A stretch of DNA of 64,000 nt from positions 1-64,000 of the forward strand of contig JBDRWW010000006.1 in assembly GCA_039802605.1 (NCBI GenBank), read 5' to 3'. Below the pieces are notes generated by a model. It was not told the DNA's origin, did not search any database, and was given only the letters and a program-made list of their open reading frames with translations. The DNA is from a candidate division WOR-3 bacterium. GTDB taxonomy: Bacteria; Hydrothermota; Hydrothermia; LBFQ01. Positions 1,989-62,571 of this stretch are shown one piece after another. Both the position numbers and the translations under genes were made by a program. Numbering within the stretch: the first letter of the stretch is position 1; each line of letters opens with the position of its first letter.

Positions 1989-2031
1989 AACCCGTATTCT
2001 AAGGTTGTATATTTTTCCAATTGTGAATTTA

Positions 2032-2043
2032 CAACCTTAGAAT
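2032..2043 (+). promoter_or_regulatory. C-N5-TAGAAT promoter for purL, back-to-back with an equivalent minus-strand promoter at 1996-2007
   Basis: CAACCT-TAGAAT on both strands, 11 and 7 nt before the respective ATGs. Confidence 0.7.
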
Positions 2044-2054
2044 GAATACCCAAC

Positions 2055-4574
2055 ATGAGCATAAAAACCCTTGAAAAGGCCTTATTTATAGGACTAACAG
2101 CCGAGGAGTATGAAACCATAGAGGCACTTTTGGGTAGAGAGCCAAACGATATTGAATTGGGAATTTTTGCCTTAAACTGGTCGGAGCATTGTAGTTATAA
2201 ATCAACAAAAAGGTTTTTAAAACTTTTGCCTTCGGAATCGGATAGGACGGTTGTGGGTCCAGGTGGGGGAGCCGGCGTCTTAAAACTTGATGATGATACC
2301 GTTGTGGCCTTCAAGATAGAGAGCCATAACCATCCCTCCGCCGTTGAGCCGAAAAGCGGGGCTGCCACCGGTGTTGGTGGAATAGTCAGGGATATACTGA
2401 GCATGGGGGTAAGACCAATAGCCCTTTTGGACAGCCTAAGGTTTGGGGATTTTAGAAAATCCACTAAATCTTTAAACCTTTTGAAGGGTGTAGTTGAAGG
2501 GATTTCTTCTTATGGCAATTCCATAGGTGTCCCGGTGGTGGGAGGGGAGGTTTTGACGGACGAAAGTTATGAGGATAATCCCCTGGTGAATGTTATGTGC
2601 GTTGGGGTAGGGGATATAAGGCATTTAAAGGATGGAGTATTAAAGGGTGTGGGAAATTCCGTAATAATTGTTGGTGCCCCGACGGGTAGGGATGGCATAA
2701 TGGGGGCATCCTTTGCTTCGCAAACGCTTGAAGGGGAGATATCGGAGAAAAGGCCGGCGGTTCAGATAGGAGATCCCTTTATGGAAAAACTCCTAATAGA
2801 GGCGACCTTAGAGGCGGTGAAATTACCGCAGGTTTTGGGTTTGCAGGACTTGGGGGCGGGTGGATTATCAACGGCATTACCGGAAATGGCAAACAAGGGG
2901 GGTGTTGGGGTAGAACTCTATACGGATAGGGTACCTTTGAGGGAACCCTTAACCCCATTTGAGATAGTATTATCCGAATCCCAAGAGAGGATGGTTATGT
3001 GTGTGGAAAGGGGAAAAGAGGATGAGGTAATAAACATTTTCAAAAAGTGGGGTTTGGAAGCCGAGGTTATAGGTAGGGTAATAGAAGAAAGGGTTTTTAG
3101 GATTATACACAATGGCGAAAAGTTGGTTGAAATACCCTTGTCTTATATTTTTAAGGCTATACCAAAGCCCGATTGGTTGGCAATGTCTCCAAAAAAGGAT
3201 ATGTGGGAATTTATGGGCATATTCGCGGGTATTGAGGATAAGTATTACGAGATAAATGAAAAAAACGAGAAAAAAACTTTTGTATCCCTCCTTGACATAA
3301 TAGCCTTAACCCTTGAATATACCGCCACTTCCTACGGTTTGAGTAAAATAGACTGGGAGTTGAGGTATCAAACCTTTAAGTCAAAAAGGAATATACTTCT
3401 CGGTAAGGAGGATATAAACGAGGTTAAAGAAAAATCCGCGATACTTTCGGATTACGAGTTCCTCCTCAAAAGGATTGCAAAACTTCAAGGGGAGTCGTAT
3501 GTTGAAAAACACCTACCAAAGAAATTGGTAAAGGATTTGTGTTTAAGGGTTTTGAAAAGGCCATCCGTTGCCTCAAAGAGGTGGATTTATAGGCAATACG
3601 ATTATATGGTTGGCACGGATACGGTTATAACACCGGGCATTGGGGATGCCGCAGTTTTGAGGATTAAGGGGAAGAATTACGGTTTAGCCTTATCGGTTGA
3701 TGGTAATGGAAAGTTTTTGGAAATAAATCCTTATTGGGGTGCCCAAAGGGTTGCATCCGAAGTTTGGTTAAATATAGTCTGTTCGGGTGGTGAGGTTATA
3801 GGGTTTACGGATGGGGTAAATTTTCCATCACCGGCAGATCCCGGAGAATATTGGAAATTACAGGAGGCCATAAGGGGGCTTGCGGATTTCTCAAAGGAAA
3901 CGGGGATTCCCGTGGTTTCCGGAAATGTCAGTTTATACAACGAAAGTGAGAGGTACAAGATATTGCCAACGCTGATAATAGGAGGTGTGGGAATAGTAAG
4001 GGATTTACACAACATTCCAAGGATTGGAGTTTATAAAGAAGGTTTAAGCGTTTATCTCGTAGGTTATCCGCAAACACGGTTTGATTTGGCGGGTAGCGAG
4101 TTTGTTTTAGAAATACACGAATTGCTTGGATTAAAATCCCCCAGTAGGCTACTTTTAAAATACGGCCATCTTCCGAAGGTACATTATACGGATGTTGAAT
4201 ATATTACATCCTTAGTATCCGCTTTGAGGGATACCATTGATTACGGTTTTGCGATAAATTTGCACGATATTTCGGAGGGGGGTTTGTTTGCCGCACTCTC
4301 GGAGATGGTTATAAATGGAAGTGTTGGTATTTCGGTTAATGTTGATGGTTTTGGAGAACTATTTTCCGAACTCGCACCCCGTGTTGTTTTAACAACGGAA
4401 AACCCATACGAAATAGAATCCATTTTAGCAAAATACGGCGTAATGTTCCAACATATAGGAAAAACCATAAAGGATAGGGATTTGATAATTGAGTATCACA
4501 AGGGTAAACGGTTAAAGTTTGGTGTTTCCGAACTTCAAAAGGCATACTATGAAACTTTTGAGAATCTCGGATAA
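2055..4574 (+). CDS. purL: Phosphoribosylformylglycinamidine synthase subunit PurL
   Basis: WSEHCSYKS, KIESHNHPS, GAATGVGGIVRD, SESQERM and SGNVSLYNE motifs. Confidence 0.97.
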   Translation: MSIKTLEKALFIGLTAEEYETIEALLGREPNDIELGIFALNWSEHCSYKSTKRFLKLLPSESDRTVVGPGGGAGVLKLDDDTVVAFKIESHNHPSAVEPKSGAATGVGGIVRDILSMGVRPIALLDSLRFGDFRKSTKSLNLLKGVVEGISSYGNSIGVPVVGGEVLTDESYEDNPLVNVMCVGVGDIRHLKDGVLKGVGNSVIIVGAPTGRDGIMGASFASQTLEGEISEKRPAVQIGDPFMEKLLIEATLEAVKLPQVLGLQDLGAGGLSTALPEMANKGGVGVELYTDRVPLREPLTPFEIVLSESQERMVMCVERGKEDEVINIFKKWGLEAEVIGRVIEERVFRIIHNGEKLVEIPLSYIFKAIPKPDWLAMSPKKDMWEFMGIFAGIEDKYYEINEKNEKKTFVSLLDIIALTLEYTATSYGLSKIDWELRYQTFKSKRNILLGKEDINEVKEKSAILSDYEFLLKRIAKLQGESYVEKHLPKKLVKDLCLRVLKRPSVASKRWIYRQYDYMVGTDTVITPGIGDAAVLRIKGKNYGLALSVDGNGKFLEINPYWGAQRVASEVWLNIVCSGGEVIGFTDGVNFPSPADPGEYWKLQEAIRGLADFSKETGIPVVSGNVSLYNESERYKILPTLIIGGVGIVRDLHNIPRIGVYKEGLSVYLVGYPQTRFDLAGSEFVLEIHELLGLKSPSRLLLKYGHLPKVHYTDVEYITSLVSALRDTIDYGFAINLHDISEGGLFAALSEMVINGSVGISVNVDGFGELFSELAPRVVLTTENPYEIESILAKYGVMFQHIGKTIKDRDLIIEYHKGKRLKFGVSELQKAYYETFENLG

Positions 4575-5433
4575 ATTAGAGGAAGAAACCTGTGCTTGTA
4601 TAGGCTCTTTTGATGGTATGCATATAGGTCATAGGGCTATAATAGAGGATGTAAAGTGTTATGCGAAATTAAAGGGCTTAAAATCTTTGATCATAACTTT
4701 TAGAGAACACCCGAGGCTTGAAAAAAACCTCCTATTTACACCCGAAGAAAAGTTAGAAGCGTTAAGGGAAACCGGAATTGATTATGTTTTACTTTTGGAA
4801 AGGGAAGATATGGAAATAACCGCTTTGGAGTTTTTAAATATCCTGAAAAATGGGTTCAAAGTTAATAGGTTGGTTATGGGTTTTAATCACAGGTTTGGGA
4901 AAAATAGAGAGGGAGATCCATCTTTTATTTTGAGTCATTTAAGCGAATTCCCCTTTGAATTGGTGATATTTCCACCTATAAAGGTTGGTGGCATTGTTGT
5001 AAGTTCCACAAACATAAGAAATATGCTATTGGAGGGCAGGGTTGATGAGGTTATACCTCTTTTGGGCAGAAGATATTCCATTGTGGGGAGGAAGGTTAAA
5101 GGTGCGGGTTTGGGAAAAAACTTGGGTTTTCCTACGGTTAATTTGGAGGTTGAAGGTGGGAAATTAATACCCAAGGATGGGGTATATGCGGTCTTCTTAC
5201 CGGATTTGGGGAAATACGGCGTAATGCATATAGGGAATAGACCAACTTTTTCCTTGGATAAATCCCTTGAAGTTCATATACTTGATTTTGATGGGGATAT
5301 TGGGGATACTTTGAGGGTTGAGTTTGTTAAAAGGATAAGGGATGTTATGAGGTTTAAAAACGGCAAGGAGTTGAAGGAAAGGATACTCAAAGATATTGAG
5401 GTTGCAAAACGGGTGATTTCATCGGCGTTATAA
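4549..5433 (+). CDS. ribF: Bifunctional riboflavin kinase / FAD synthetase
   Basis: IGSFDGMHIGH, VSSTNIR, GFPTVN, GNRPTF and LEVHILDF motifs. Confidence 0.95.
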   Translation: MKLLRISDKLEEETCACIGSFDGMHIGHRAIIEDVKCYAKLKGLKSLIITFREHPRLEKNLLFTPEEKLEALRETGIDYVLLLEREDMEITALEFLNILKNGFKVNRLVMGFNHRFGKNREGDPSFILSHLSEFPFELVIFPPIKVGGIVVSSTNIRNMLLEGRVDEVIPLLGRRYSIVGRKVKGAGLGKNLGFPTVNLEVEGGKLIPKDGVYAVFLPDLGKYGVMHIGNRPTFSLDKSLEVHILDFDGDIGDTLRVEFVKRIRDVMRFKNGKELKERILKDIEVAKRVISSAL

Positions 5434-5443
5434 TTTCCGTATT

Positions 5444-10108: not shown

Positions 10109-11245
10109 TCACCAATCCAAAACATTGCCATCTTTATCAACCTTTAATATAGCCGCAGTTGAAAGGTTGTCTATACATGTCGTAAAATATATCACCCCAT
10201 CATTGGATACCTTGGCATCGTATAAACCACTCGCACCCAAAGGAGACCAGTAATTCCTCAAAAGCGTTATATTCCCCTCATCGTCAAACTTCACAGCAAT
10301 TATACAATACCCAGAACCACAAGTAGCCACCTCCCCAAACGCAAAGTATTGCCCATCAGGTGTCCTTACTACCTCCTTGAAAGGCCCTCCCCATACCTCG
10401 TTATCAAACGGTTTCCTTATGCACCTATACCACTTTAAATTCCCCAAACTGTCAAGCTTTACTATTAAAGGACAATCTTCCGAAGTGTGCCTCTGTACAG
10501 CCTTCCCAACAAATACCAATCCACCATCATAAGCCTCTACTCCGGCATTCACAAAAGCCCCTATAACCGTATCAAGTATTATACCCCTACTCCAAAGAAA
10601 ATTCCCATTGCTATCAACCTTATAAACCGCAAAACTAACAGGTGCCTCGGGCTCGTATGTAGCCACATACCCAGCCCCATGCTTCGTTATGGTGGGAAAA
10701 ATCGGCTGAATGGCTTTCCTATATGTCGTGTCGCATGTTTCCCATAAAAAGTTCAAATCTGAACCCGTAAATTCATATTTCCTTATGCAGTTGTGAGGAT
10801 AAACTGTGGTTGATATTACAACATAACTTCCATCGGATAACACCTCATTACCCCCAAACCCAATATTAACAGATGAATTCCACATATTGCCGTTTAAATC
10901 TACAAACATTGCGTTTAAGGGTGTTGCTATAACAAACTTATCAACAGATACCCTGTATATACCATCAAACCCAATCGTATCCTTGGTTTTTATCCAAATA
11001 ATATTCCCCCCTCCCGATATGCGTGTTACAATGTTGTATTTGTAGTCCTTTACAGTTAGCATAATATCCCCGTTATCAGATAGTGCTATACTCGGTTTCA
11101 TACAAAATTCCTGCAATTTCACACTAACCACCTTTGTTGAATCAAAACAATAATATTGTGGGTCTGGCTCACAGGCCACCTTTCCCTTTCTGCACCCCGC
11201 AAAAACCAAGAAAAGGGCAAAAGCAAAGAATGCTAACCTTTTCAT
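10109..11245 (-). CDS. Lipoprotein, probable beta-propeller
   Basis: Lipobox FAGC; repeated K(V/L)DS.GN..W blades. Confidence 0.75.
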   Translation of the reverse strand: MKRLAFFAFALFLVFAGCRKGKVACEPDPQYYCFDSTKVVSVKLQEFCMKPSIALSDNGDIMLTVKDYKYNIVTRISGGGNIIWIKTKDTIGFDGIYRVSVDKFVIATPLNAMFVDLNGNMWNSSVNIGFGGNEVLSDGSYVVISTTVYPHNCIRKYEFTGSDLNFLWETCDTTYRKAIQPIFPTITKHGAGYVATYEPEAPVSFAVYKVDSNGNFLWSRGIILDTVIGAFVNAGVEAYDGGLVFVGKAVQRHTSEDCPLIVKLDSLGNLKWYRCIRKPFDNEVWGGPFKEVVRTPDGQYFAFGEVATCGSGYCIIAVKFDDEGNITLLRNYWSPLGASGLYDAKVSNDGVIYFTTCIDNLSTAAILKVDKDGNVLDW

Positions 11246-13479
11246 CTCTTTATAACCTTATAAACTTTATTCTTAACCACAACGAAATATATCCCGCGCT
11301 TCAAACCACCCATATCAATCGTATAGTTCCCGAATTTACCTTCCTTAACCAATCTCCCATTGGAATCGTAAACCTTAAAGTATCCGGAAGGTAGGTCAAT
11401 CTTCAAAGTGTTATGAACCAATTTTGTTTCCATTGGTCGAATACCTGTGAATATAGTCCCAAATGCCTTGTTATCATTCATACCCAAAACCTCCCTATAA
11501 ACCGAAAGTATATCCTCTTCGTCATAAGAAGGTGAAACCGTAATATACGAGACCAATGTCCTCGGTTCTTTACCATAAGTTTCAAAGAAAAAGTAATAAA
11601 CACCCCTGCGGTTGAGCCTAAGGTAAGCCTTAAATGTATCCCTAACCTTCACAGGCCTTACAACCCCGTAGCTTGTCCAAGGCCCTATGGAGTAATAAAA
11701 CCCCATAACGGAATCTGCAAATGGATGGTGTATATCTATTCTTATAATCTCACCCTCAGTATATACATGCTTGTTAAACCTTAAGTACGCGCTAACGGGA
11801 CTTAGAAAAGATAGTATTACAGGTGTTGGGAAAATACCTTCTAAATCCGCATGACCTCTTTCTTTTTCTATTTTCATAAGAGGCTGACCAGAAGATTTAT
11901 TAAATGCGGCTATATAAGTGTATCCATATTCGCGTCTGTTTAGATATACAGTATCCGCCCATAAAACCCTTAAAGCCGAAGGAGACCATATTGCAACGCT
12001 GTCAGTTAAATAAGAAGGCATTATGTATAATGTGGAATCAATTAGGGTTATGTATCCCCAACTTCTAACTTCCTTCGGGGAAGTTATGGGTATATCAAAG
12101 GGTGCATTGTAATATGTCTCTTCTGGTAGGGTATCAAGAATAGCACCTTCTATAAAAGGAAACAATGATGGATCCTCTTTTATTGCCGTGTGATCCTTTT
12201 CCCATATATCCGGATCCCCGGAGCATGTCCTTCCACCAGAGCCCGTAGGTTGGTTGGAAAATATTTTGGTTTGCAAATCAAACTGGATATCCCTGGCACT
12301 GGCATTTCCATATTCAACCACACCATCATTACACCCAGCACCCATAACATACCTTACGACAAAACATCCCGCTTGGGATTTGGCGGGAAAGGTGCCACAT
12401 TTCCACTCGGGTGTCCAGCCCATGCCAAGTCTTGCAACCTTGATATTCCCCGGTACCGTATCGGATGCAATATATCTATAATACGCCGACCTCCATGCCA
12501 AAACCCCAAAGCCTGTAAGTATGTCATAGTCCATCTGGAATCCCTCGCATACTAAGGGCACTGTCGCCTGAAATGCCAAGCACAAACTAAACAACCTGGG
12601 GTCCAGTATAAAAAGACCACAATTTAACCAACTACCACCATTACAAAAATCCGCCATGGCAGACCCATAAAAAGGCGTTCCAAGGGCCACAAAACCCATA
12701 ACATATGGATTATTCTTTAAATAAATTACACCTTCGGTTTCTAAGCCCGCCCTACTATGCGCGACTACAACTATACTCCTATTCCAAGTAGAATCATAGT
12801 TCCTGTAAATATACCTCCCCAATGAACCTATAAGGGTATCCAAAAGGTTTGTATTTGGCCAAAAAGAGGGACCTTTCCCATCGTTAAAATCGTATAAGGT
12901 CACCATGGCAACGCGGAAATATGAATTTGTCACTAAGTAATCCTTTAAACTCACCATAGAGTTGCAATCCGAACCCATACCATGAACTAATAACACGACA
13001 GGAAGATCTTTTTGCGGTGAACTGGGGGAATTCCAGAATAGTCCCAACCATTTACGATACCTGGGGGAATACCATGTCCAAATCGGATCACCGCATCTGG
13101 GATAGGGGTTTATAGGACTAGGTCCAGGGCCACTTCCTCCCCCACCCCCCGGTGGTGGCTCATCTCCTGAACCCCTTGGCTGGCAAGGCCCCAACTCGGG
13201 GACACTATCCGGATTCGCCCAGCAGCATACCCCTTGGGAATATGGTGGATTAAAGTCATAGCATCGCCCAACATGGCAAATGGGGGCTATATAGTCCATG
13301 CTGGTATCTATACAACACGGGTTTCCTATGTATCCACATATTTCTGAGTTGGGTTTAATATCCGGTGGATTGTCCTTAGGAAACATAACTCCGGGAAGGA
13401 TTAAAAACGCCAAACCTAAGACCCACGGCGTTTTCTTCCTTCTTCCTTTCCATACGTTTTCTTCCTTCTTCCTTTCCAT
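11242..13479 (-). CDS. Secreted alpha/beta-hydrolase (lipase-like) with Cys-rich N-domain and C-terminal sorting-like domain
   Basis: LVHG oxyanion motif, AHSRAG nucleophile elbow, LGTPFYGS, NDGVV and YDSNGRLV...GIYFVVV tail. Confidence 0.75.
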   Translation of the reverse strand: MERKKEENVWKGRRKKTPWVLGLAFLILPGVMFPKDNPPDIKPNSEICGYIGNPCCIDTSMDYIAPICHVGRCYDFNPPYSQGVCCWANPDSVPELGPCQPRGSGDEPPPGGGGGSGPGPSPINPYPRCGDPIWTWYSPRYRKWLGLFWNSPSSPQKDLPVVLLVHGMGSDCNSMVSLKDYLVTNSYFRVAMVTLYDFNDGKGPSFWPNTNLLDTLIGSLGRYIYRNYDSTWNRSIVVVAHSRAGLETEGVIYLKNNPYVMGFVALGTPFYGSAMADFCNGGSWLNCGLFILDPRLFSLCLAFQATVPLVCEGFQMDYDILTGFGVLAWRSAYYRYIASDTVPGNIKVARLGMGWTPEWKCGTFPAKSQAGCFVVRYVMGAGCNDGVVEYGNASARDIQFDLQTKIFSNQPTGSGGRTCSGDPDIWEKDHTAIKEDPSLFPFIEGAILDTLPEETYYNAPFDIPITSPKEVRSWGYITLIDSTLYIMPSYLTDSVAIWSPSALRVLWADTVYLNRREYGYTYIAAFNKSSGQPLMKIEKERGHADLEGIFPTPVILSFLSPVSAYLRFNKHVYTEGEIIRIDIHHPFADSVMGFYYSIGPWTSYGVVRPVKVRDTFKAYLRLNRRGVYYFFFETYGKEPRTLVSYITVSPSYDEEDILSVYREVLGMNDNKAFGTIFTGIRPMETKLVHNTLKIDLPSGYFKVYDSNGRLVKEGKFGNYTIDMGGLKRGIYFVVVKNKVYKVIKR

Positions 13480-13506: not shown

Positions 13507-13632
13507 GGGGTGTGAATTATAAGGGGGTAAAAAGTTTTGTGCAGGTGCTTTTCAGCGAACGCAACACAACACGAATTTCCCCGTATAAACCCTATGTATT
13601 ACAAACACCTTTCAACCTTATAATTCCCGTAT

Positions 13633-15690: not shown

Positions 15691-16801
15691 TCTCTCTCCC
15701 TTATGTAATAGGCTACATTTAACCTTTTAATTCCGAGTGCGGGTGTTATCGTTAAGATAATAACGAGAAGTATCAAAAACAATGCGGGATGTATAAAGTT
15801 GTGCGGGTCTAAAAGTGCGGTTATTATGGGTTGTAATGTTAAACCCTCATAAGATGTTTGGGATACGAAGTTGGATATATCTATTGGGTTGAATTTTAGT
15901 AAGGCCGTTATGGCCAAGGAGATGATTAAGCCTATTATTAAACTGAAAAACCCCATATACAGGTTTTCCAAGAACAACAAAGCATACAAAAACCTCTTCT
16001 TTACCCCTATCGCCATTAACATTGCAAATTCTTTCCTCCTTTCGTAAAAAGAAATCAAAAAGGTGTTAAATATTATCAAACCCACCACAAAATAGAAAAG
16101 GACATCGTAAATTATTCCAAACGCATCCCACATCCTCATATAAAACCACAACACAGGCATATAACAAGGCTTTTTAAGGGATTATCCAATCTTATTACAA
16201 CCTCATGGAATGTGGAATCCGGAAGGTTTAAAAATTCCCTAACATTTTCAAAACTCGTAAAAACAGTCCTCATATCCACAATTCTATCACCACTTGAAAA
16301 TATGCCATTTATAACCCCTCCTATGGTTGAGAACGAACCGTTTAGGGAGTTTCCTATAACATACAAGGAATCACCTACGGAACATTCAAGGATTTTTGCC
16401 AATCCTTTACCAATAACAAAACCATCATCGCCTTTAAAACTTTTTATTAAAGGTTCCCTTTCAAAATTTACGCCAAGGACTTCACCCGAATATATGTTCT
16501 TTCCGCAAACGAAAAGTCCAAACCCCCTAACCCTATAAGAGGTGTTAAACCCTGAAAAGTTGGGCAAATCTCCGGTTTTAAAGAACTTGTAAATACTTCT
16601 ATCCTTTGAGTAACCCTTTTTGGTTATCGTTATATGACCCAAATAGTTGTCCGTGGTGGCCTTTATACTCATTAAGAAAAGGGCTTCGTATATGTCTATC
16701 GTTATAACCAAAAAAGAATAACCCATAACCATGACCGAAATAGTTAGAACCGTCCTACGCTTATTTCGCCAAAGGTTCCTAAAAGCGAGTTTCCATATCA
16801 T
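15687..16801 (-). pseudogene. ABC permease (LolC/E / FtsX-like) split by a frameshift near 16140-16170
   Basis: N-half (KLAFRNLWRNKRRT, 16136-16801) and C-half (ERRKEFAMLMAIG, 15687-16160) are in different frames. Confidence 0.8.
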
Positions 16802-17445: not shown

Positions 17446-17457
17446 AAGCCTTATATT

Positions 17458-21328: not shown

Positions 21329-21410
21329 TTTTCCCCTCCTTTTTTGAGTGGGTATTATAAGGGTGAAAACGATGGCGGTAATCAATTTAAAAGCCTTTGA
21401 GGGAGATGTC

Positions 21411-33593: not shown

Positions 33594-33605
33594 AATATTT
33601 GGTGG

Positions 33606-47233: not shown

Positions 47234-47299
47234 TGCGGGAATTATAAGGCTGAAAGATTTTATAAAATTTAAAACAAAACGGGCATATAATCCCCGCTT

Positions 47300-50334: not shown

Positions 50335-51461
50335 TGGATAAAATACCCATTTTTGAACTAAACTGGGATGGGGATGAGGAAAGGGAGGTTTTAGAGGTAT
50401 TAAAGAGTAAGTGGGTTTCAATGGGTCCTAAAACCGAGGAATATGAGCGGGATTTGTCAAGGTTTTACGGTGTTAAATATGCCCTCGCTTTTAACAACGG
50501 AACATCTGCCCTTTTATCCGCATATTACTCCTTGGGTTTAAAGGGAGAGGTCGTTTTACCCTCCTTAACATTCGTCGCTACGGCAAACGCCTTAAGGTTC
50601 CTCGGAATAAAGCCCATTTTTGCGGATATACATTCCTTGGAAATCCCTTTAATCTCTGCGGAAACGGTTGAGAGGGTTTTAAATCCAAATGTTTGCGCCG
50701 TCGTATATGTTAATTATGCCGGTTATTCGCTTTTTATCGATGAGATTAAAGATTTATGCGATAGAAAGGGGTTAATACTCGTAGAGGACGCCTCGCATGC
50801 CCATGGGGCGGTTTATAAAGATAGATTTGCGGGGACATGGGGAAATGTGGGCGTTTTTAGTACCTTTGCAAATAAGAACCTATCAACGGGTGAAGGTGGG
50901 TACCTTTTAACGGACGACGGGGAACTATACAGAAGGGCAAAACTTTTTAGATCTCATGGATTAACATCATCCTCTTGGGAGAGGTTTAAAGAGGGTAAAA
51001 ACAGGATTTACGATGTCGTTGATATTGGATTAAATTTAAGACCTTCCGAAATACAATCCGCAATAGGTTTGGCAAATTTGAGGAAACTCAAAAGAGAAAA
51101 CGAAAAGAGGCGGAATCTCGTCTCCCTTTATAGGAAGCTTATAAGGGAGGAAATACCCGATATAACCATACCCTTTGAAAACATACCCGTTGAAGGATCT
51201 TCCCATTACATATTCCCGATACTTTTACCCAAGGGCGTCAATAGGGATAAAATTGCGGAGAAATTGGCGGATATAGGTATAGGGACGAGTGTGCATTATC
51301 CCCCCGTACATAGGTTTTCCTTTTATTATGAGGGTCAAAAACTTGAAAAAACGGAAGAGTATTCGGAAAGGACATTAACATTGCCCCTATGGGGGGATAT
51401 GGGTGAGGAGAGGGTTTATAGGGTAGTTGAGGGTTTAAAGAAATGCCTATATTCGCAATAG
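50334..51461 (+). CDS. DegT/DnrJ/EryC1/StrS sugar aminotransferase
   Basis: NNGTSAL, EDASHAHGA, NKNLSTGEGG and LTLPL motifs. Confidence 0.95.
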   Translation: MDKIPIFELNWDGDEEREVLEVLKSKWVSMGPKTEEYERDLSRFYGVKYALAFNNGTSALLSAYYSLGLKGEVVLPSLTFVATANALRFLGIKPIFADIHSLEIPLISAETVERVLNPNVCAVVYVNYAGYSLFIDEIKDLCDRKGLILVEDASHAHGAVYKDRFAGTWGNVGVFSTFANKNLSTGEGGYLLTDDGELYRRAKLFRSHGLTSSSWERFKEGKNRIYDVVDIGLNLRPSEIQSAIGLANLRKLKRENEKRRNLVSLYRKLIREEIPDITIPFENIPVEGSSHYIFPILLPKGVNRDKIAEKLADIGIGTSVHYPPVHRFSFYYEGQKLEKTEEYSERTLTLPLWGDMGEERVYRVVEGLKKCLYSQ

Positions 51462-53017
51462 TACCACCTTCCCAAGCCTTGCATATACGATGTTATCATA
51501 GGCCTTACACCTAAAAGGTTCCTTATACCGCAGTTAAACTGGCTAGTATAATCCCCCTTAAAGCCCACCATGTTAAGGTTTAAATCCAAGAATACACCCA
51601 CATTGGCTTTATAACCGAAGTAATCGTATTGGGTTGTATCGTTCTCAACCCTAAGGCCGAGGATGTTTGTTAAGAATGAAAACCTATACCTCGGGAAGGA
51701 TGGGGTGTATCTTCCCGCGCCTTTTACATCCGGATAAAGGGCCGAGAATGAAAGGTTTAGGGTTATAGGTCCTAAGTAATAAACCGGTGAGAAGGCCTCA
51801 AAGCCGTATATATTGTGTGTTTGTATGTTTTCCGCGAAGTATTTATCATCCCTTTTAACCCAATCAATCCTATCGTAAAACCTTATGGCATAAACCTTAA
51901 AGATCCCAAAATCCGCATCAACTCCAAAGTCAAAACCCAAAACCCTTTCGGGCTTTAAGTTCTTATTCCCATAGTTTTTTGGGTCGGAATAAAACAATTC
52001 CGTGAAATCCGGCAACCTGCGGGAATAATAAGCGTTCAATGAAAACCACCCATAAACCCCAAATATATAGGGTTCATATCCCAATTTTCCGGAAAAGTTA
52101 TCGTACGAAACCTTTAAACCACCCTTAACAACCCAGTTGTATCCGTTTGATATAAGGGAAGGTAATATAAAGGCGTAATACCTCATTGTATCCCTAATAC
52201 CCGTAGCCCTTTCAACTATTGAACTTTTTATATACTCCGCATTCCCGCCGGTTTTTATTTCAAGAAACCCAATCTTATGGGAAAACTCCCCACCGGAATT
52301 TAAAGTATTGTGTAAGTTTCTACCGGTTCCCCAATTAAACTGGTCTTGGTGCCATCTGGCAAACAACTTTAACCCTTTAAAACTCCCACCCAAAAGGGCT
52401 ACCTGTGTGGTTTCATTTGATTCAAAGGTTGGAGGCAGATAAAACCCCTTTGCCGAGAAGGAGTTATACCTATAACCCGCAAACACATCAAAATCCGTTT
52501 CTTTTCTTGAAAGGAACAATGCTATGGAATTTGCCGGATTAAAGTATTTTCCGTTATCATACTCAAAAACATAACCATCCCACCTAAAACCCTCAAAGGA
52601 AAGCGTATTGTTTTGATGGTAAAACTTACCAATGCCCTTTACATACCCCCTTCCCCCAATCCTCAAAATCCCACCCGAGATATTTGAAGGCGTTATATTT
52701 ATCCCCGGAAGGTTTGCAAATCCGGAATAAAAGGATGAAACCAATCCAAAACCCGATATATCCATTTCGGTGAAAGGTAGGTTTGAGTTGTGATGGCCCG
52801 TTTGTGGATCGTAAAGGGGTATTCCATTATATAAAATCCTCGTTTGGTTAAAACTCAAACCCCTAAGGGATATATCCGCCTGAATTCCAAAAGGTCCCCT
52901 TTCTATAAGATAAACCGAAGGTAGTGAATTTAGGGAGTATATAGGGTCGGCACTTGATACGGAAACGGCATACATATGAAAAGGGCTTATTGCCATTACC
53001 GTGTCTATCCAAAACAT
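51416..53017 (-). CDS. TonB-dependent receptor (compact)
   Basis: RGPFGIQADISLRG...NGIP.YDPQTGHHN plug, RLPDFTELFY, GNKNLKPE and GIRNL. Confidence 0.88.
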   Translation of the reverse strand: MFWIDTVMAISPFHMYAVSVSSADPIYSLNSLPSVYLIERGPFGIQADISLRGLSFNQTRILYNGIPLYDPQTGHHNSNLPFTEMDISGFGLVSSFYSGFANLPGINITPSNISGGILRIGGRGYVKGIGKFYHQNNTLSFEGFRWDGYVFEYDNGKYFNPANSIALFLSRKETDFDVFAGYRYNSFSAKGFYLPPTFESNETTQVALLGGSFKGLKLFARWHQDQFNWGTGRNLHNTLNSGGEFSHKIGFLEIKTGGNAEYIKSSIVERATGIRDTMRYYAFILPSLISNGYNWVVKGGLKVSYDNFSGKLGYEPYIFGVYGWFSLNAYYSRRLPDFTELFYSDPKNYGNKNLKPERVLGFDFGVDADFGIFKVYAIRFYDRIDWVKRDDKYFAENIQTHNIYGFEAFSPVYYLGPITLNLSFSALYPDVKGAGRYTPSFPRYRFSFLTNILGLRVENDTTQYDYFGYKANVGVFLDLNLNMVGFKGDYTSQFNCGIRNLLGVRPMITSYMQGLGRWYYCEYRHFFKPSTTL

Positions 53018-53051
53018 AAGAGGGTATTATAAAAAGGTTTGTTTCACAAAA

Positions 53052-53861
53052 TTACTTTGTTAAAGCAACGCTTACGGCTACCAAGAATAAACCAAAGGAT
53101 TCCGTTGCACTTAGGGATTCGCCGAGGATAAAAATTGAAAAAACGGTTCCAAAAATTATTGTTGAAAGTATTATTACGGAAGACGAAACGGCACCTTTAA
53201 ACTTTAATCCGTAAAAGTAGAGGATATAACCCAAACTTGAAGGGAAAACGGCAAGCCATATTACCGATAGCGATGGAACAATATCCGGTTGGAATTTAAA
53301 GAACATAGGTAAGAATGCCAAGGCTATAAAGGTTGAAACGAAGTTTGTGGAAAATGTATAATAAATCGGTTCTATTTGTAGGGAAAACTTTTTTGCAACC
53401 ACTACATAGAATGCGTAAATTATTGATGCCAGGAAGGATAAAAAGTCCCCCAAATTTATACCCCTAAATTCAAAAACATTCCCTATTAATAAAACCCCAA
53501 GGGTTCCCAAAACTATGGAAATTATGCTCCTGTTAATAAGCCTTTCCTTTAAAACCAGCGGCGCCAAGATACCCACATAAATCGGAAAAGTGTTTGATAT
53601 TATTGCAACCTTTGAGGCTGTTGTAAAAACCTGCCCCGTAAATTGGAGCTCGTGGGCCAATGCGTTTAAAGTTCCCAATATTATCGTAGGCTTTGAGATT
53701 AAAGGGGTTTTTCTGAGTATTAAAAACAAAAGAATGCTACTCAGAAGGAACCTGAAAAATATTATAACCTGCGGTGAAAAAGATGCTAAGGCGAATTCGG
53801 TGGCCGGTGGCGATGTTCCCCAAATTATTGAGGCTATTATTAAGGCAATGAAGCCCCTCAA
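53052..53861 (-). CDS. EamA/DMT family transporter
   Basis: IWG, RF, LKER, GD...A.Y.V and LGE motifs; about 10 TM segments. Confidence 0.92.
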   Translation of the reverse strand: MRGFIALIIASIIWGTSPPATEFALASFSPQVIIFFRFLLSSILLFLILRKTPLISKPTIILGTLNALAHELQFTGQVFTTASKVAIISNTFPIYVGILAPLVLKERLINRSIISIVLGTLGVLLIGNVFEFRGINLGDFLSFLASIIYAFYVVVAKKFSLQIEPIYYTFSTNFVSTFIALAFLPMFFKFQPDIVPSLSVIWLAVFPSSLGYILYFYGLKFKGAVSSSVIILSTIIFGTVFSIFILGESLSATESFGLFLVAVSVALTK

Positions 53862-53945
53862 AGCGGGGAATTCTAAGGGTGTGGTTTGTTTTGCCGGAAA
53901 TGGTTAGATTTAAGACTTGAAGGCAACCGTAAAATAACCGGTTAA

Positions 53946-55308: not shown

Positions 55309-55526
55309 ACCCTTACCTCCACGACTTTATTCCGGGATTTTTCCCCCCTCAAAATTTTTATATTATCCTTTGGAATACCAAAGAAATCCGATAAAAGTTC
55401 TATTAACCTCTTGTTTGCCCTCCCATCAATAGGTGGGGAATTTATACCAACTTCAAACCTGTTTTCATCTAACCTTTTAACATATTCCCTCTTTGAATTG
55501 GGTTTAACTTTTACCTCAATTATCAA
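55305..55526 (-). CDS. DUF167 (YggU) family protein
   Basis: VKPNS, PPIDGRAN and GEKSRNK motifs. Confidence 0.92.
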   Translation of the reverse strand: MIIEVKVKPNSKREYVKRLDENRFEVGINSPPIDGRANKRLIELLSDFFGIPKDNIKILRGEKSRNKVVEVRV

Positions 55527-56800
55527 ACCACAACATCAACCAGGGGTTTTGCTTTTAAGGTTAAACCGCTAACATCGGTGATCTTAACCTTTACGAATTC
55601 ACCGGGTTTAAACAACCCTTCAACAACTACCGTTAAACCGTTTTTTATCTTTCCGGAAGACTCTTTAACGCTTTTCCTACTTATCCCATCAATTAATACC
55701 TCTTCTTCCCTTCCCAGGAAAACCTTTCTCCTTTCAAGGGCATTTTTATTAACCTCGTCTATAAGCCTTCTTTGTCTCAAAATCTTTGTATCCTCATCCA
55801 CCTGATCCTTGTAGAAGGCCGCCGGTGTGTTTGGCCTTGGTGAATAAACGAACATAAAAGCCCCGTCAAACTTAACCTTCCTAACGACATCCAAGGTTTC
55901 CTCAAAGTCTTCCTCGCTTTCACCCGGGAATCCCACAATTATATCCGTTGTTATCGTCCCATAAGGCATCAATTCCCTTATCATATACGCCTGTTCAAGG
56001 TATTCCGCTTTGTTATAACCCCTATTCATCTTCCTCAAAATCCTATCCGAGCCCGCCTGTAAAGGCAAGTGTATCCAATCCGTTATAATCTCGCTTTCCG
56101 CAATGGTCTTTAAAACCTTATAAGAAAAGTCCCTCGGGTTTGGGCTCGTAAATCTAACCCTCCTTATATTCTTTACATTATCCTCTATAATCCTTAAAAG
56201 GTCGGCAAAATCGTATTTCCCATCAAAATAACTGTTAACATTCTGCCCAAGTAGGGTTATCTCAACAACCCCTTGCCCGTCCAAGGTTTTAACCTCTTCA
56301 ACTATTTCCTCCGCAGGCCTTGATATTTCCCTACCCCTCGTATAAGGCACAACGCAAAATGTGCAAAAGTTATCACATCCGTATTGTATGCTAACATACT
56401 CGGAATAACTTAAAGCCTTCCTTTTTGTCCTGTAATGCAAACCCAAATCATAACAAACGACCTTTTTCTCTTCCAATGAACCTAAAAGTTTTGGGAGTTC
56501 GTTGTATCCCCTCGTTCCAACCACAATATCCGCCCCAAATTCCAAGAGTTTATCGCCTTCCTGTTGAGCCAAACAACCCAGAACGCCTACAAACTTTCCC
56601 CTATTTTTATAATGTCTCAAAAGGTGTTTTGCCTTTCTGGCCGCCTTTTCCCTAACCGTACATGTGTTTATTAAAACGATATCCGCATTTTGTGGATTTT
56701 CTGTATATACAAAACCGCTTTCCTCCAAAATATCCCTGATTATCTCGCTATCCAACTCGTTCATCTGACAACCAAAAGTTTTAATATAAAACCTCCTCAT
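55523..56800 (-). CDS. miaB: tRNA 2-methylthio-N6-isopentenyladenosine synthase
   Basis: TFGCQMN, NTCTVREKA, GCDNFCTFCVVPYTRGRE and TRAM domain. Confidence 0.95.
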   Translation of the reverse strand: MRRFYIKTFGCQMNELDSEIIRDILEESGFVYTENPQNADIVLINTCTVREKAARKAKHLLRHYKNRGKFVGVLGCLAQQEGDKLLEFGADIVVGTRGYNELPKLLGSLEEKKVVCYDLGLHYRTKRKALSYSEYVSIQYGCDNFCTFCVVPYTRGREISRPAEEIVEEVKTLDGQGVVEITLLGQNVNSYFDGKYDFADLLRIIEDNVKNIRRVRFTSPNPRDFSYKVLKTIAESEIITDWIHLPLQAGSDRILRKMNRGYNKAEYLEQAYMIRELMPYGTITTDIIVGFPGESEEDFEETLDVVRKVKFDGAFMFVYSPRPNTPAAFYKDQVDEDTKILRQRRLIDEVNKNALERRKVFLGREEEVLIDGISRKSVKESSGKIKNGLTVVVEGLFKPGEFVKVKITDVSGLTLKAKPLVDVVV

Positions 56801-56815
56801 AATTTCAACTGCTTA

Positions 56816-58009
56816 TTATAAGGCTGAAATAAACTCTTCGCCCGTTTCCATATCCTTTACCTTGAATTTCCCGGTTTTTACTTCTTCCTCACCCACAAAC
56901 ACCACCCACTTAGCACCTACTCTATTAGCCCTCCTCATCTGAGATTTTAAGCTCTTACCCCTTTCAAAAACCATATCCGCCTTTTTACCCATTTCCCTTA
57001 ATCTCATCAGCGCGTTAAAGGCCACATCCGTATATTCGTCCGATGTCCTAACTACAAAGTAAATTTCTTCCCTTTCCCCTTGCGGGTTGTATATAAGGCT
57101 AATCCTATCAATTCCCGCCGCCCATCCGAATGCCGGTGTATCTTTACCCCCAAGCCAAGATACGAGTTTATCGTATCTCCCACCGGCCAAAATGGTGTTC
57201 TGTGCGGCATCCAAACCCTCGGCCTTAACTTCAAAAACCAATCCCGTATAGTAATCCAATCCCCTTACGAGCTTAGGATCCCTCTCAACCGGAACCCCGA
57301 AATCTTTTAATATTTGAAAGGTCTTTTCAAAATTATCCCTCTCTTCATCCGGTGTAAAATCCGCAATATCCGGCGGATTGAGTTTTGGGGAGCAGGTTTT
57401 ACAATCAAGAACCCTTAAAGGGTTTCTTTCCCTCCTAAATTTACAATCATCGCACAGGAAATCCAAATCTTTAAGGTATTTTTTTAACTCCTCCGAATAC
57501 CTCAATTTTGTATCCTCGCCTCCAAGCGTATTAACATAAATTTTAACATCCAAATTTAATTCCCTTAACGGTAGATACGCCGCAAGTATTCCCTCGGCAT
57601 CCGAATAAGGACCCGAATAACCCAAGAACTCCACCCCCAATTGGTAGAATTGCCTATACCTTCCCTTTTGAGGCCTTTCACCCCTAAACATAGGGCCGAA
57701 ATAAGCGAGTTTAATGGGGGGGGAGAGGCCGTTTTCCAAAAATGCCCTCACAACTCCGGCAGTTCCCTCAGGCCTCAAAGCCACATCCCTCCCCCCCCTA
57801 TCCTTAAAGACAAACATCTGCTTTTGCACTATGTCCGTAAATTCCCCCACGGATCTTACGAACAGTTCCAGAGGCTCAACTATCGGCGTTTCTATCCATA
57901 TAACATTGAACCTTCCCAACCAAACCTTAAAGGTGTTAACAATCCTCTCAAACTTGTAGAGCTCAAAACCCACCAAATCCCTAAAACCCCTAAGGGCTTT
58001 TATCTGCAT
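56816..58009 (-). CDS. hisS: Histidine--tRNA ligase
   Basis: LRPEGTA, ERPQKGRYRQF, LVRGLDYY and GGRYD motifs. Confidence 0.97.
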   Translation of the reverse strand: MQIKALRGFRDLVGFELYKFERIVNTFKVWLGRFNVIWIETPIVEPLELFVRSVGEFTDIVQKQMFVFKDRGGRDVALRPEGTAGVVRAFLENGLSPPIKLAYFGPMFRGERPQKGRYRQFYQLGVEFLGYSGPYSDAEGILAAYLPLRELNLDVKIYVNTLGGEDTKLRYSEELKKYLKDLDFLCDDCKFRRERNPLRVLDCKTCSPKLNPPDIADFTPDEERDNFEKTFQILKDFGVPVERDPKLVRGLDYYTGLVFEVKAEGLDAAQNTILAGGRYDKLVSWLGGKDTPAFGWAAGIDRISLIYNPQGEREEIYFVVRTSDEYTDVAFNALMRLREMGKKADMVFERGKSLKSQMRRANRVGAKWVVFVGEEEVKTGKFKVKDMETGEEFISAL

Positions 58010-58022: not shown

Positions 58023-58862
58023 CTATCTCCTACCCGTTAGAGCCCTATACCTACGGGTTATTTCTATTTGGCTTCCCATAGATGAGTTGAACACAACGCT
58101 ATCCTTCGCTTGTGTTAAAACAACACCATAATAAGGTTTTATGTAGGTTGTATCGTATGTGTCAAGTGTTGCAAATGTATCGCCCGAAATCGGAAGGCAT
58201 CCCGTTGGAATGGTGAATAATCCATAAAACAATCTTGCATGCATTTTACTCCTAATCCTATAAGCGCTAAAAATTCCGGCGGGTACGGAAACTGACAAGG
58301 AATCCATAACATAAGCATGAGAGGAATCAACCCTGAAACTGTCCAATCTGACTCCCAAAGTGCAGGTTGCCGTAAGAGGATTTTTTATCGTATCTCTTAA
58401 CCTTTGGGTTTGCGGTAATAACGGCATCCAAGATTTACCTATATTTAAAGGCCTTATACCAAAATTATACCTAAGCCTTACAGTATCCGATTCAATAGCG
58501 AAACTCGTGTATAGATAGACCGTGTCCCCCTTTATATGAAAGGTATCCTTTAAGGTTCTACCGGATATGAAGAAAGTATCAACATGTGGTACCAAGAGTT
58601 CCCCTCCGGAAGGTATATAGTTGTAGAAAATAGTTTGAACGGTATCCAGCGCGGTTCCGCTACTTGAAGATGTGGTACTGTCCCAATATACGAAGGAACT
58701 GTCCGGTGTGATACCGAAATACACAGCCGTGCTTTCCGGACTTGGTGTGGGGCCACCTCCCCCGCCTCCTCCGCCACCCCCACCGCCTTCTTCGGGAGCC
58801 GTGCTCCTTTTACACCCAAAAGCCACCGCTAAGGCTAAAAGAATTAAAGAAACGCGTTTCAT
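58023..58862 (-). CDS. Hypothetical lipoprotein with poly-Gly linker
   Basis: AFGC lipobox; VSVPAGIF motif. Confidence 0.75.
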   Translation of the reverse strand: MKRVSLILLALAVAFGCKRSTAPEEGGGGGGGGGGGGPTPSPESTAVYFGITPDSSFVYWDSTTSSSSGTALDTVQTIFYNYIPSGGELLVPHVDTFFISGRTLKDTFHIKGDTVYLYTSFAIESDTVRLRYNFGIRPLNIGKSWMPLLPQTQRLRDTIKNPLTATCTLGVRLDSFRVDSSHAYVMDSLSVSVPAGIFSAYRIRSKMHARLFYGLFTIPTGCLPISGDTFATLDTYDTTYIKPYYGVVLTQAKDSVVFNSSMGSQIEITRRYRALTGRR

Positions 58863-58909
58863 GGTTGAGGGTATTATAAGGGTGAAATTTAACTACCGTA
58901 GAATTTTCT

Positions 58910-60579: not shown

Positions 60580-60627
60580 TGGACATATTCAATACTTCTT
60601 TTTTTCGCCCTTATAATATACGGTAGC

Positions 60628-61128: not shown

Positions 61129-62505
61129 ATGTTAATACTTCTATTAACCGATGCGCCATTTGGCCCAAATGTTAAGGTTTCAAACTGGGATATTAGCACG
61201 GGATTGGATCAGCTTGAAGTATCCCTTGCCAAGAGCTCTTCTTGGATAGCGGCTCATTGGATAGATACGGATTGGTCCGGATGGTTTTCCGCCAACGATT
61301 TTGCTATAAGTTCCGATGGTGGCTCTACATGGAAGTTCGTATGGTATATCAGACCCCCTGACACCGTAAACTGTTGGATAGGGGATCCATCCGTCGCTTC
61401 CGATCCCACAAATCCGGACAAGTTCTACGCAGTGGGTATGATATATTGCAACCCTTCAGATCCCAAAGGTGAGGTTTATTTCTGTAAAAACACCGGAAGG
61501 CCTGATACGATTACCAGTTGGAGTTGTTCCATACTCCCCCCTAACGACGGCTGGGCATACTTTAAGGATAAACCTTGGATAATATCACTGGGTGGGGGTG
61601 TTCTCCTTGTAAATTACACTACCGACAAGTACGGAAGTTATGAAATAGATATAGCCCGGAGTACGAATGACGGTTCAACTTGGAATACAATAAGGCTATC
61701 TGGGGTACAATCAACGGTTGCATACTTTTACAGGGATGGTTCAACTGTTTATCTATCCCAAAACAACTTTAACTCTTGGCCTAATATAGCCATAAGGGTT
61801 AGGAAATCAACGGATAACGGAGCTACTTGGACATCCTTAGGGGATGCGGTCAGTTTTAGTCCGGGCTCTTCAACATATTGTCCAAACTTTAACAGACCAG
61901 CAAAGATACACAACCATATAACCGCCCAAGGCAACAATATAGCCGTTGCCTTTATAAAACCCAACGGTTCTTATTGTAATGTAGGTGTGGCATATTCAAC
62001 GAATGGGGGTTCTACTTGGAACAACAAATATGTGGCACAGGCATCAATCGATCAGGTTCTCCCAATGATTGCGAGTTCTTCCCCTTCAAATCTATATGTT
62101 ATGTGGCAGGAAAAGGTTGGGAGTCAATGGGCCACAAAGTGGGCGTCTTCAAGCAACTGGGCAACAACCTTCTCCTCGCCGGGTAGGGTATCCGATCATA
62201 ACTATACATTTAACCAAAATCCGGCCGGCCATGACTACAACGGTTTCCTATACGATGCGGGCAATCTCTTTGCCATATGGGCAAACGACTATTACGGAGA
62301 TGATGCGGGAGCTGTTTATTTTACTAGAACCGCATATACATCCTTAGAAGAGGCTTTGGATAATGGGATTGCCGGGGAATTTGATATATATACCGTTGAT
62401 GGAAGGGTTGTTGCAAGAAATGTCAAAAACTTAAAAGAAATGCACCTGCCAAATGGTGTATATTTCTTAAAGACGGGAACGCGGGTTATAAAGGTTGTAA
62501 GATAA
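61129..62505 (+). CDS. BNR/Asp-box (sialidase-fold) protein with C-terminal sorting-like domain
   Basis: SSDGGSTW, STNDGSTW, STDNGATW, STNGGSTW and DKPWI; IYTVDGRVV...GVYFLK tail. Confidence 0.85.
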   Translation: MLILLLTDAPFGPNVKVSNWDISTGLDQLEVSLAKSSSWIAAHWIDTDWSGWFSANDFAISSDGGSTWKFVWYIRPPDTVNCWIGDPSVASDPTNPDKFYAVGMIYCNPSDPKGEVYFCKNTGRPDTITSWSCSILPPNDGWAYFKDKPWIISLGGGVLLVNYTTDKYGSYEIDIARSTNDGSTWNTIRLSGVQSTVAYFYRDGSTVYLSQNNFNSWPNIAIRVRKSTDNGATWTSLGDAVSFSPGSSTYCPNFNRPAKIHNHITAQGNNIAVAFIKPNGSYCNVGVAYSTNGGSTWNNKYVAQASIDQVLPMIASSSPSNLYVMWQEKVGSQWATKWASSSNWATTFSSPGRVSDHNYTFNQNPAGHDYNGFLYDAGNLFAIWANDYYGDDAGAVYFTRTAYTSLEEALDNGIAGEFDIYTVDGRVVARNVKNLKEMHLPNGVYFLKTGTRVIKVVR

Positions 62506-62511
62506 CCATAA

Positions 62512-62531
62512 GGGGGGTATCCCCCCTTTTT
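62512..62531 (+). terminator. Intrinsic terminator
   Basis: GGGGGG-TAT-CCCCCC followed by a T run. Confidence 0.8.
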
Positions 62532-62571
62532 CCACAAACATAAAAATCAACTATATAATACCCAGTCGTAT

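Follow-up and report, generated by a model that had tools for sequence, protein, structure and literature searches.

A near-invariant C six nucleotides upstream of the -10 box in probably near-leaderless promoters of one WOR-3 family, and candidates for its reader

How RNA polymerase finds promoters that consist of little but a -10 box is the question raised by the window analyzed here, the whole stretch of 64,000 nucleotides that forms the initial 64 kb of contig C6 (JBDRWW010000006.1) in a genome of a candidate division WOR-3 bacterium (GCA_039802605.1). An earlier note on this DNA had described TAnAAT hexamers upstream of gene and tRNA starts that carry a C exactly six nucleotides (nt) before the first T, and had proposed that the primary sigma factor reads this lineage-specific base in place of a -35 or TGn element. 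All eight plus-strand sites quoted there are present, each coordinate being that of the C, with TAnAAT 6 nt on. The genome (G000 below) comprises 1.65 Mb in 23 contigs, has 41% GC and is 90% complete; a crude caller of our own, greedy by length and limited to open reading frames (ORFs) of 80 amino acids (aa) or more, gave 1601 genes. Positions are indexed with the first T of TAnAAT as 0, which puts the C at index -6 or promoter position about -18; this and all other promoter numbers presuppose that the box occupies -12 to -7, its usual placement.

A genome-wide set of sites was picked on TAnAAT alone, without any requirement at the position of the C. The first T of the hexamer clusters at -15, -14, -13 and -12 from ORF starts (130, 162, 68 and 61 of 1588 genes), with 0 to 10 occurrences at positions elsewhere. 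Of the 493 hexamers that lie at -18 to -11 from an ORF start, 458 have C at index -6, 20 have A, 8 have G and 7 have T, whereas C stands there in 1120 of 5805 intragenic copies (19.3%; genomic C is 20.7%). The remaining intergenic copies have C in 170 of 473 cases. The C bias claimed for gene and tRNA starts is therefore real in an unbiased set, and a frequency near background, which the earlier note had named as the outcome that would speak against it, is not what gene starts show. Within the window, 67 of the 253 TAnAAT at any place have the C, which is background. In 33 cases TAnAAT stands 11–18 nt ahead of a start codon that opens at least 80 aa; 24 of these have C, and all nine without it lie at internal codons of longer ORFs; at window gene heads with TAnAAT the C is present in 22 of 22, and both tRNA promoters have it too. 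As for the 35 start-proximal sites in the genome that lack C, some 10–12 keep the remaining motif, mostly with A in its place, while the rest resemble chance matches, several of them followed by GGAGG. We conclude that the C very probably belongs to a real promoter element under selection.

The full motif reads A/T tract, C, N2, C, Y, T, TAnAAT, ACCC, and then a start codon 6–9 nt on. Across the 493 sites, an A-rich segment at index -16 to -12 (A peaks at 56% at -14) is followed by a T-rich one at -11 to -7 (T 48% at -8), the C at -6, and bases other than T at -5 and -4. Immediately 5' of the box come C at -3 (326 sites), C or T at -2 and T at -1 (318 sites); on its 3' side A at +6, C at +7 to +9 and a purine at +10 precede a start codon located mainly at +13 to +15. 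Counted from the first T, the most frequent distance to the start codon is 14 nt, so that 8 nt separate box and codon. In promoter numbering, the A-rich and then T-rich tract would extend from about -28 to -19, with C at about -18, C at -15, Y at -14 and T at -13. A position matrix separates the genes in two, about 520 scoring above 8 and the others far lower; after iteration on these roughly 520 genes its defined box columns stand at T.99, A 1.0, A.98, A.99 and T 1.0, values biased by the seeding of the matrix on exact TAnAAT. Scanned over both strands (3.3 million positions), it yields 639 matches at 14 or more, 518 of which have a start codon 9–23 nt downstream that opens 50 aa or more.

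To which class do such promoters belong? In the textbook view, sigma reads the -35 and the -10. The -35 region shows no positional conservation across the 493 sites, so a -35/-10 architecture does not describe them. With five or more of six matches to TTGACA and a spacer of 16–18 counted as a hit, a -35 occurs in 5.7% of the sites (eight of them with a perfect match) and in 1.9% of intragenic controls. A small minority of these promoters has a -35, and the earlier statement that TTGACA is not consistent stands. The extended -10, whose T-15 and G-14 are read by sigma region 3.0, resembles our motif in that extra bases upstream of the box offset an absent -35, and the sigma residues H455 and E458 are present here. 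However, TG occupies -15/-14 in only five of the 493 sites, as the earlier note had also seen, and C is found at -15 and -18 instead, which sets the motif apart from the extended -10 class. An A/T-tract element, with A or T at -18, does not fit either: the tract begins at -19 and upstream, and -18 is C in 93%.

Genes with a divergent neighbor must have a promoter of their own. Among 402 of them, the motif lies 11–18 nt before the start codon in 275 and further upstream in 33, and is missing from 94. Genes 25 nt or less behind a same-strand gene have it in 136 of 905 cases, and operon-internal genes, for example rplA to rpoC just past the window, have GGAGG sites instead. Box-to-start spacing and GGAGG on internal genes together give the sequence layout of a leaderless organization, and with a start codon 6–9 nt past the box the mRNAs would be almost leader-free. 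The motif is a sigma-70-type, -10-only promoter of what appear to be near-leaderless mRNAs, and as such of a known kind. In the accessible text of PMC6028130, the GeneMarkS-2 ‘group C’ (Actinobacteria, Deinococcus-Thermus) has a Pribnow box 6–8 nt before the start of first operon genes, and it shares with our genomes the box near the start of first genes, the lack of a Shine-Dalgarno sequence there and ordinary ribosome sites inside operons. It is, as described in that text, a -10 box alone, whereas the promoters studied here add a near-invariant C 6 nt upstream, C and T at -15 and -13, and a near-invariant box; the lineage is not mentioned in that part of the paper.

The motif also stands before genes that are not translated. 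TAnAAT occurs 12–30 nt before the mature 5' end of 42 of the 47 tRNA and tmRNA genes, and these 42 promoters of G000 have C at -6 without exception, C at -3 in 38 and T at -1 in 37, in keeping with the promoter identity assumed by the earlier note. Of the five genes that lack a box, four sit downstream in a single tRNA cluster and the fifth lies where a contig ends. A fixed short distance to start codons might suggest that the motif acts in translation or as an RNA signal, or that the choice of sites produced it, but we regard either as scarcely credible: the motif stands at the same distance before tRNA and tmRNA genes, which makes it a transcription signal, its core is the classical -10 consensus, and the unselected set has 93% C compared with 19% inside ORFs. 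Chance, a selection artefact and a translation signal are all but ruled out by the genome-wide set, the intragenic controls and the tRNA/tmRNA promoters. Repeated mobile cassettes were likewise rejected, as flanks differ and the motif is kept in two genera at 41% and 57% GC. Nearly all tRNA genes have their own promoter, the mature 5' end being 14–21 nt past the first T of the box, so that 5' leaders would be a few nt at most.

How far does the C extend beyond this genome? The phylum sample comprised 151 genomes, mostly metagenome bins: seven of family f1, to which G000 belongs and which consists of two genera (41% and 57% GC) of uncultured thermophiles, and 144 others, including the sister family f2. 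The pattern C-N5-TAnAAT-N6-9-ATG and a version with any base but C were each set against their own reversed control. For f1, the C pattern and its control gave 501/77 in G000 (not-C and control 301/279), 523/70 in G002 (291/269), 631/79 in G003 (382/338), 524/44 in G005 (65/83), 596/40 in G006 (82/119), 448/18 in G007 (68/22) and 568/33 in G008 (93/92). Nearly the whole excess over chance thus carries C in f1, and not-C is near its control in six of seven genomes, the exception being G007. In f2 the start-proximal box is present without C at -18: the C pattern gave 124/20 in G012 (not-C 376/64), 142/23 in G016 (330/56), 113/99 in G013 (990/542), 163/73 in G014 (1355/420) and 152/74 in G015 (1345/439). 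Outside f1, the not-C count exceeds the C count in 144 of 144 genomes, as read off both tables of counts.

Inspection of individual genomes resolves a second C. In 100 kb of G005 (f1, 57% GC), 38 of 50 TAnnnT sites have C at -6. In G014 (28% GC) and G012 (51% GC), both of f2, it is present at 5 of 30 and 7 of 26 sites, but 19 of 30 and 17 of 26 carry C at -3; sequence of G021 (f5) has neither. Among tRNA promoters, C at -6 and at -3 are found in 42 and 38 of 42 in G000 and in 26 and 21 of 26 in G005, compared with 0 and 11 of 11 in G014 and 2 and 15 of 15 in G012. The f2 consensus is AtgCttTAAAATttt, with the core CttTAAAAT and its C at about -15. In selected rows, C at -3 accounts for about 67–76% of the start-proximal excess in f1, 38–57% in f2, 34–44% in f5 and f8, and 13–18% in f3, f11 and f17. 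The f2 promoter of G012 and G014 thus shares with that of f1 the near-leaderless -10 layout, the C at -15 and a T at -14 and -13, and f2 also has the same 13-residue insertion in beta' (see below); unlike f1 it has A, T or G at -18 (C in 2 of 26 tRNA promoters), an A/T-rich discriminator and an Arg in the beta' zipper. We read the comparison as suggesting that C-15/T-13 is older and common to the order, and that C-18 was gained in the ancestor of f1. The pattern CNNCNTTANAAT occurs 3–6 times as often as its reversed control in five own-genus genomes and 5–16 times (mostly 10–15) in seven sister-genus genomes, and shows no enrichment in the next family within the same order. In both genera, the stretch 3' of the tRNA promoter box is conserved and ATCCACCTC-like (27360-27382 and 62548-62571 in the window, and genome-wide).

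Must a protein read the base at all? The C could simply mark the junction of a bent T tract and the box, sensed as shape, or act as a G:C clamp against melting at high temperature. It is preceded by the A-rich and T-rich segments described above, the discriminator is C-rich as well, and A/T tracts at -17 to -23 activate E. coli -10-only promoters through shape (PMC7229825, accessible part). Yet a junction or clamp would take G nearly as well, while the observed preference for C over G is strand-specific (458 to 8), which points to contact with the base itself more than to shape or to a thermal clamp. Moreover, the C persists in the sister genus (57% GC; 26 of 26 tRNA promoters) even though the A/T tract is weak there, and the sister family at 28% GC, which may or may not share the habitat of a hot-spring relative of like GC content (PMC11696919), lacks it. 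We consider an unread C very unlikely.

If a protein contacts the base, sigma is an obvious candidate. The genome encodes three sigma factors, a 567-aa primary sigma, a 279-aa sigma and a 175-aa factor of the extracytoplasmic function type. The first matches RpoD/SigA chains at up to E 3e-90, has the YATWWIRQ motif and the conserved regions 2.3–2.4 of a primary sigma and, given this box and this set of genes, would be the obvious user of the motif; we call it sigma-A and number its residues by ungapped offset to E. coli sigma70 chains (query 293–563 against chain 342–612). Readout by its domain 2-3 linker or region 3.0 would draw on the equivalents of H455 and R451, which contact the -17 and -16 phosphates in Taq complexes (accessible text of PMC4593229) and are present in f1. 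However, f1 and f2 do not differ at the equivalents of R451, H455 and E458 or anywhere in the region 3.0 helix, and alignment of f1 with the other families revealed no f1-specific substitution between E. coli 444 and 478. This stretch is the same in f2, whose -18 is A/T, so no sigma change accompanied the gain of the C. In addition, A or T is what R451 favors at -18 in E. coli, an effect that PMC3130263 and PMC7229825, in their accessible parts, attribute to backbone and shape and not to base reading. We therefore find it unlikely that the primary sigma itself reads the C.

Region 4.2 keeps the equivalents of R584, E585, R588 and Q589, which read the -35. The f1 version carries E or Q at position 596 (E. 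coli numbering) and Q or S at 593, changes that may weaken -35 binding; as a cause of C reading these differences were rejected, since they cannot explain -18 and Q at 593 is also found in another family (G019, f3). The sigma-A gene sits in an operon behind a GGAGG site in all families, so there is no orthologous promoter to compare. The sole 16S gene (contig C3, 80425) has TTGACA-N17-CATAAT about 100 nt upstream, with G in place of the C. This predicted promoter is of the canonical -35/-10 type, although the rest of the genome makes hardly any use of a -35, and the enzyme is presumably still able to use one. Of the earlier proposal, then, lineage specificity (seven of seven f1 genomes, none of 144 others) and the missing -35 and TGn elements hold up, whereas a changed sigma as the reader is not supported: of the two regions that the note wanted inspected, 3.0 is shared with f2 and 4.2 keeps its -35-reading residues, and the predicted 16S promoter is canonical and lacks the C.

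The reading we prefer places the contact in the core enzyme. The sigma-A holoenzyme would read the -18 C:G pair as duplex DNA, at the part of the spacer that is covered by the beta' zipper and by the linker between sigma domains 2 and 3, and this contact, C-15/T-13 and the bent A/T tract would together replace the -35 contact. The likeliest reader would be the beta' zipper, which has Lys (Lys49) for a conserved Arg in f1 only, with a basic insertion of 13 residues (24–36) before it. All 12 f1 genomes compared have INY-K-T-L as their zipper sequence, and all 18 others have INY-R-T; a DNA pattern encoding ETINYKT occurs in seven of seven f1 genomes and none of 144 others, and all five solved-structure homologues shown have R at that position. 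The insertion, AE(R/M)(R/K)GRERGE.G., lies directly before the zipper in f1, f2 and f5 and is not found in f3, f4 or f6–f9; cyanobacterial gamma subunits of solved structure have a shorter one at the same place. The segment of G000 rpoC that holds it (C6:70552-70941) is just beyond the window. A seemingly f1-specific Arg in the beta' zinc-binding domain (EVTRSD) was discarded as a candidate, as solved homologues from other phyla have Arg too. In Taq open complexes, beta' Y34 and R35 contact the -17 non-template phosphate beside sigma H278 and R274 (PMC4593229), and PMC3173786, in its accessible part, reports that the zipper Tyr/Arg pair stabilizes promoter complexes via the spacer and that an element between -22 and -18 can stand in for the -35. 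We favor the core over sigma because beta' differs exactly where the spacer is touched while the sigma-A surface is the same in f1 and f2. This is a correlation on a long branch, and readout of the -18 base pair by a remodeled zipper is put forward tentatively, as a distinct possibility.

Alternatively, a separate f1-specific general DNA-binding factor, bound to polymerase or promoter, might read C-18. Helpers such as CarD and RbpA exist in other phyla, f1 is highly diverged, and the near-invariance of one base exceeds what known spacer contacts give. Against this, with sigma and beta' in place there is hardly space for another protein at a single-base element 6 nt from the box. No candidate was found, although no systematic search for family-only proteins was made, and the CarD C-terminal family was not found in the 90%-complete genome. 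We rate a helper of this sort as quite unlikely.

Taken as a whole, the preferred explanation, a selected C of the housekeeping promoter that is read at -18, most likely by the core zipper, has in our estimate a probability of roughly one half. Several points weigh against it. All genomes are interrelated, so that the family pattern is one evolutionary event and not 151 observations. Identity of f1 sigma-A is 72–100% within the family and 41–45% to every other family, and on so long a branch many substitutions track the family. The exchange of Lys for Arg is conservative, and zipper residues in solved complexes touch a phosphate and not a base (PMC4593229, accessible text). About ten apparent promoters, judged by the remaining motif, carry A instead of C, and the predicted rRNA promoter does without the C. 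Gene starts rest on our crude caller. C at +9 followed by a purine at +10 would fit transcription starting 5 nt past the box, which would shift all promoter numbers. Metatranscriptome reads over 17001-37000 amounted to 2, 0 and 61 from three raw-read runs (3–5% of each read), with 41 contigs from a fourth, and formed no pile of 5' ends; we infer the start site and hence ‘-18’, the sigma used, the leaderless state and, above all, the reader of the C.

Two known spacer elements come close. The Z-element of PMC3173786, as the accessible text has it, is a core-acting spacer element at -22 to -18 that can replace the -35; under usual numbering the f1 C would lie at its downstream edge, and the zipper Tyr-Arg pair implicated there is the pair altered in f1. 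Its consensus is loose, however, with a less than twofold effect per base, whereas the f1 base is 93–97% conserved. In E. coli, sigma70 R451 mediates the effects of position -18 and of an A/T tract spanning -17 to -23 (PMC3130263 and PMC7229825, both in part). Like f1, such promoters have an A/T tract upstream of -17 that activates -10-only promoters, and the R451 equivalent is conserved in f1; but any A/T sequence works there and A/T at -18 stimulates, while f1 has C at -18 and a tract from -19. What sets the f1 motif apart from both elements is its register, the base selected and, most of all, how strictly that base is kept. The AACCT of the Z-element lies 4 bp before the box in T7A1; in f1 AACCT abuts the box, so the similarity is out of register. 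The earlier note knew of no description of this promoter class, and we found none of a C-18 promoter in the open-access literature on leaderless WOR-3 genes, on Caldipriscus or on spacer elements, the last consisting of E. coli and Thermus work only.

In the window, the predicted promoters are given below from the C to the end of the box, with matrix score and, for start codons and mature tRNA ends, the distance from the first T. On the plus strand, CAACCT-TAGAAT at 2032..2043 (score 12.7) precedes an FGAM-synthase-like gene (2055..4574; ATG, 17 nt) and CGGCGT-TATAAT at 5423..5434 (20.9) a DNA methylase gene (5444..; GTG, 15 nt). CAACCT-TATAAT at 13613..13624 (26.5) heads a 70-aa ORF (ATG, 14 nt), CGAGCG-TATAAT at 22998..23009 (17.1) polA (23020..; ATG, 16 nt), and CAATAT-TAAAAT at 25582..25593 (11.8) a gene at 25603.. 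(GTG, 15 nt), with a 5-of-6 -35 (TTTACA) at a spacer of 16. tRNA-Leu (27382..27465) has CAACCT-TATAAT at 27360..27371 (23.1), its mature 5' end lying 16 nt away. Next come CATCCT-TAGAAT at 28613..28624 (16.6) before a sugar transferase gene (28642..; ATG, 23 nt), CGAATA-TATAAT at 30030..30041 (17.1) before a ferredoxin-type gene (30050..; ATG, 14 nt), and CGGAAT-TAAAAT at 30703..30714 (19.2), 15 nt from a 70-aa ORF upstream of the GAPDH gene (30938..). CAACTT-TAAAAT at 33585..33596 (15.8) precedes a gene at 33606.. (GTG, 15 nt) and has a 5-of-6 -35 (TTGAAA) at a spacer of 17; CAACCT-TAAAAT at 34401..34412 (21.2), before the acyl carrier protein gene (34428..), is leadered, with AAGGAGG between box and start. 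CACCCT-TATAAT at 35952..35963 (21.7) lies 16 nt before an in-frame ATG that gives a 96-aa form of ORF 35923..36264; the deepest contig of one metatranscriptome (depth 123) spans 35534-37000 of the window, with ORFs 35923-37064, which have no Pfam match. The remaining plus-strand sites are CGGGCA-TATAAT at 47280..47291 (19.4; PPIase-domain gene, 47300.., ATG, 14 nt), CAACCG-TAAAAT at 53924..53935 (12.1; SIS-domain gene, 53946.., ATG, 16 nt), CTACCG-TAGAAT at 58893..58904 (15.9; gene 58910.., ATG, 11 nt), CGCCCT-TATAAT at 60606..60617 (19.4; gene 60628.., ATG, 16 nt) and CAACTA-TATAAT at 62548..62559 (20.6) before tRNA-Trp (62571..62646), whose mature 5' end lies 17 nt away.

On the minus strand, C-N5-TAAAAT at 538..549 (10.8) has an ATG at 13 nt, as does CAACCT-TAGAAT at 1996..2007 (21.3) before a rhodanese gene (1125..1988). 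CCCCCT-TATAAT at 13516..13527 (21.8) lies upstream of 11242..13479, with a short out-of-frame ATG at 16 nt and the long ORF starting beyond. CTGCCG-TAGAAT at 17455..17466 (13.3) precedes a LolA-like gene (16798..17445; ATG, 15 nt), CACCCT-TATAAT at 21354..21365 (22.2) the rplM-rpsI-rpsB-tsf operon, which is leadered with AAGGAGG after the box, and CGGCCT-TAGAAT at 22969..22980 (11.9) lgt (22171..22959; ATG, 15 nt). Further sites are CCTCTT-TATAAT at 39690..39701 (15.3; class II aminoacyl-tRNA synthetase gene, ATG, 15 nt), CACCCT-TAGAAT at 40986..40997 (13.9; panC, 40096..40977, ATG, 14 nt), CAGCTT-TATAAT at 41901..41912 (17.5; gene 41015.. in its 291-aa form, GTG, 16 nt) and CAGCCT-TATAAT at 47241..47252 (gene 45599..47233, ATG, 13 nt), whose score of 28.6 is the best in the window. 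CCTTTT-TATAAT at 53026..53037 (14.4) serves gene 51416..53017 (ATG, 14 nt), CACCCT-TAGAAT at 53870..53881 (18.7) an EamA gene (53052..53861; TTG, 14 nt), CAGCCT-TATAAT at 56815..56826 (18.6) a radical-SAM/TRAM gene (55523..56800; ATG, 20 nt) and CACCCT-TATAAT at 58873..58884 (22.7), which overlaps the upstream part of the 58893 promoter, gene 58023..58862 (ATG, 16 nt).

Five pairs of these promoters stand back to back on one short A/T-rich spacer (1996-2043, 22969-23009, 47241-47291, 53870-53935 and 58873-58904), the tightest with 9 nt between its two Cs. High-scoring copies (12.8–18.0) that no ORF follows are placed within genes or antisense to them at 14530 (plus strand) and at 24875, 48462, 4194 and 32170 (minus strand), A replacing C at 48462; they may be antisense or internal promoters. 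The strong promoters (26.5 and 19.2) of 13613-13840 and 30703-30930 each head a 70-codon ORF missing from our gene list, and these ORFs may encode small proteins or be leaders of the next genes. For several genes (20891-21385, minus; 35923-36264, plus; the 541..539 region, minus), the start of the longest ORF lies upstream of or inside the box, so that the true start would be the next in-frame codon and the motif can correct gene starts.

More generally, the motif is a precise marker of gene starts and operon heads in these uncultured genomes, in which starts will be misplaced by gene callers that look for a Shine-Dalgarno sequence. Some 500 transcription units and nearly all tRNA genes rely on one spacer base as conserved as the -10, whereas the spacer contacts described to date, to our knowledge all from E. 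coli and Thermus, have weak effects of loose specificity. Families f1 and f2 form a natural before-and-after pair for the co-evolution of promoter and polymerase, in which a promoter element was gained while sigma stayed identical at the relevant surface, and the Lys of the beta' zipper gives the question of the reader a concrete residue. If the core does read the base, this would be the first natural promoter class in which a strict, core-read spacer element replaces the -35 genome-wide, and it would have arisen within one family of deep-branching thermophiles, where ancestral and derived states can be compared directly. Altogether, the motif suggests an undescribed route by which RNA polymerase may locate promoters without a -35.

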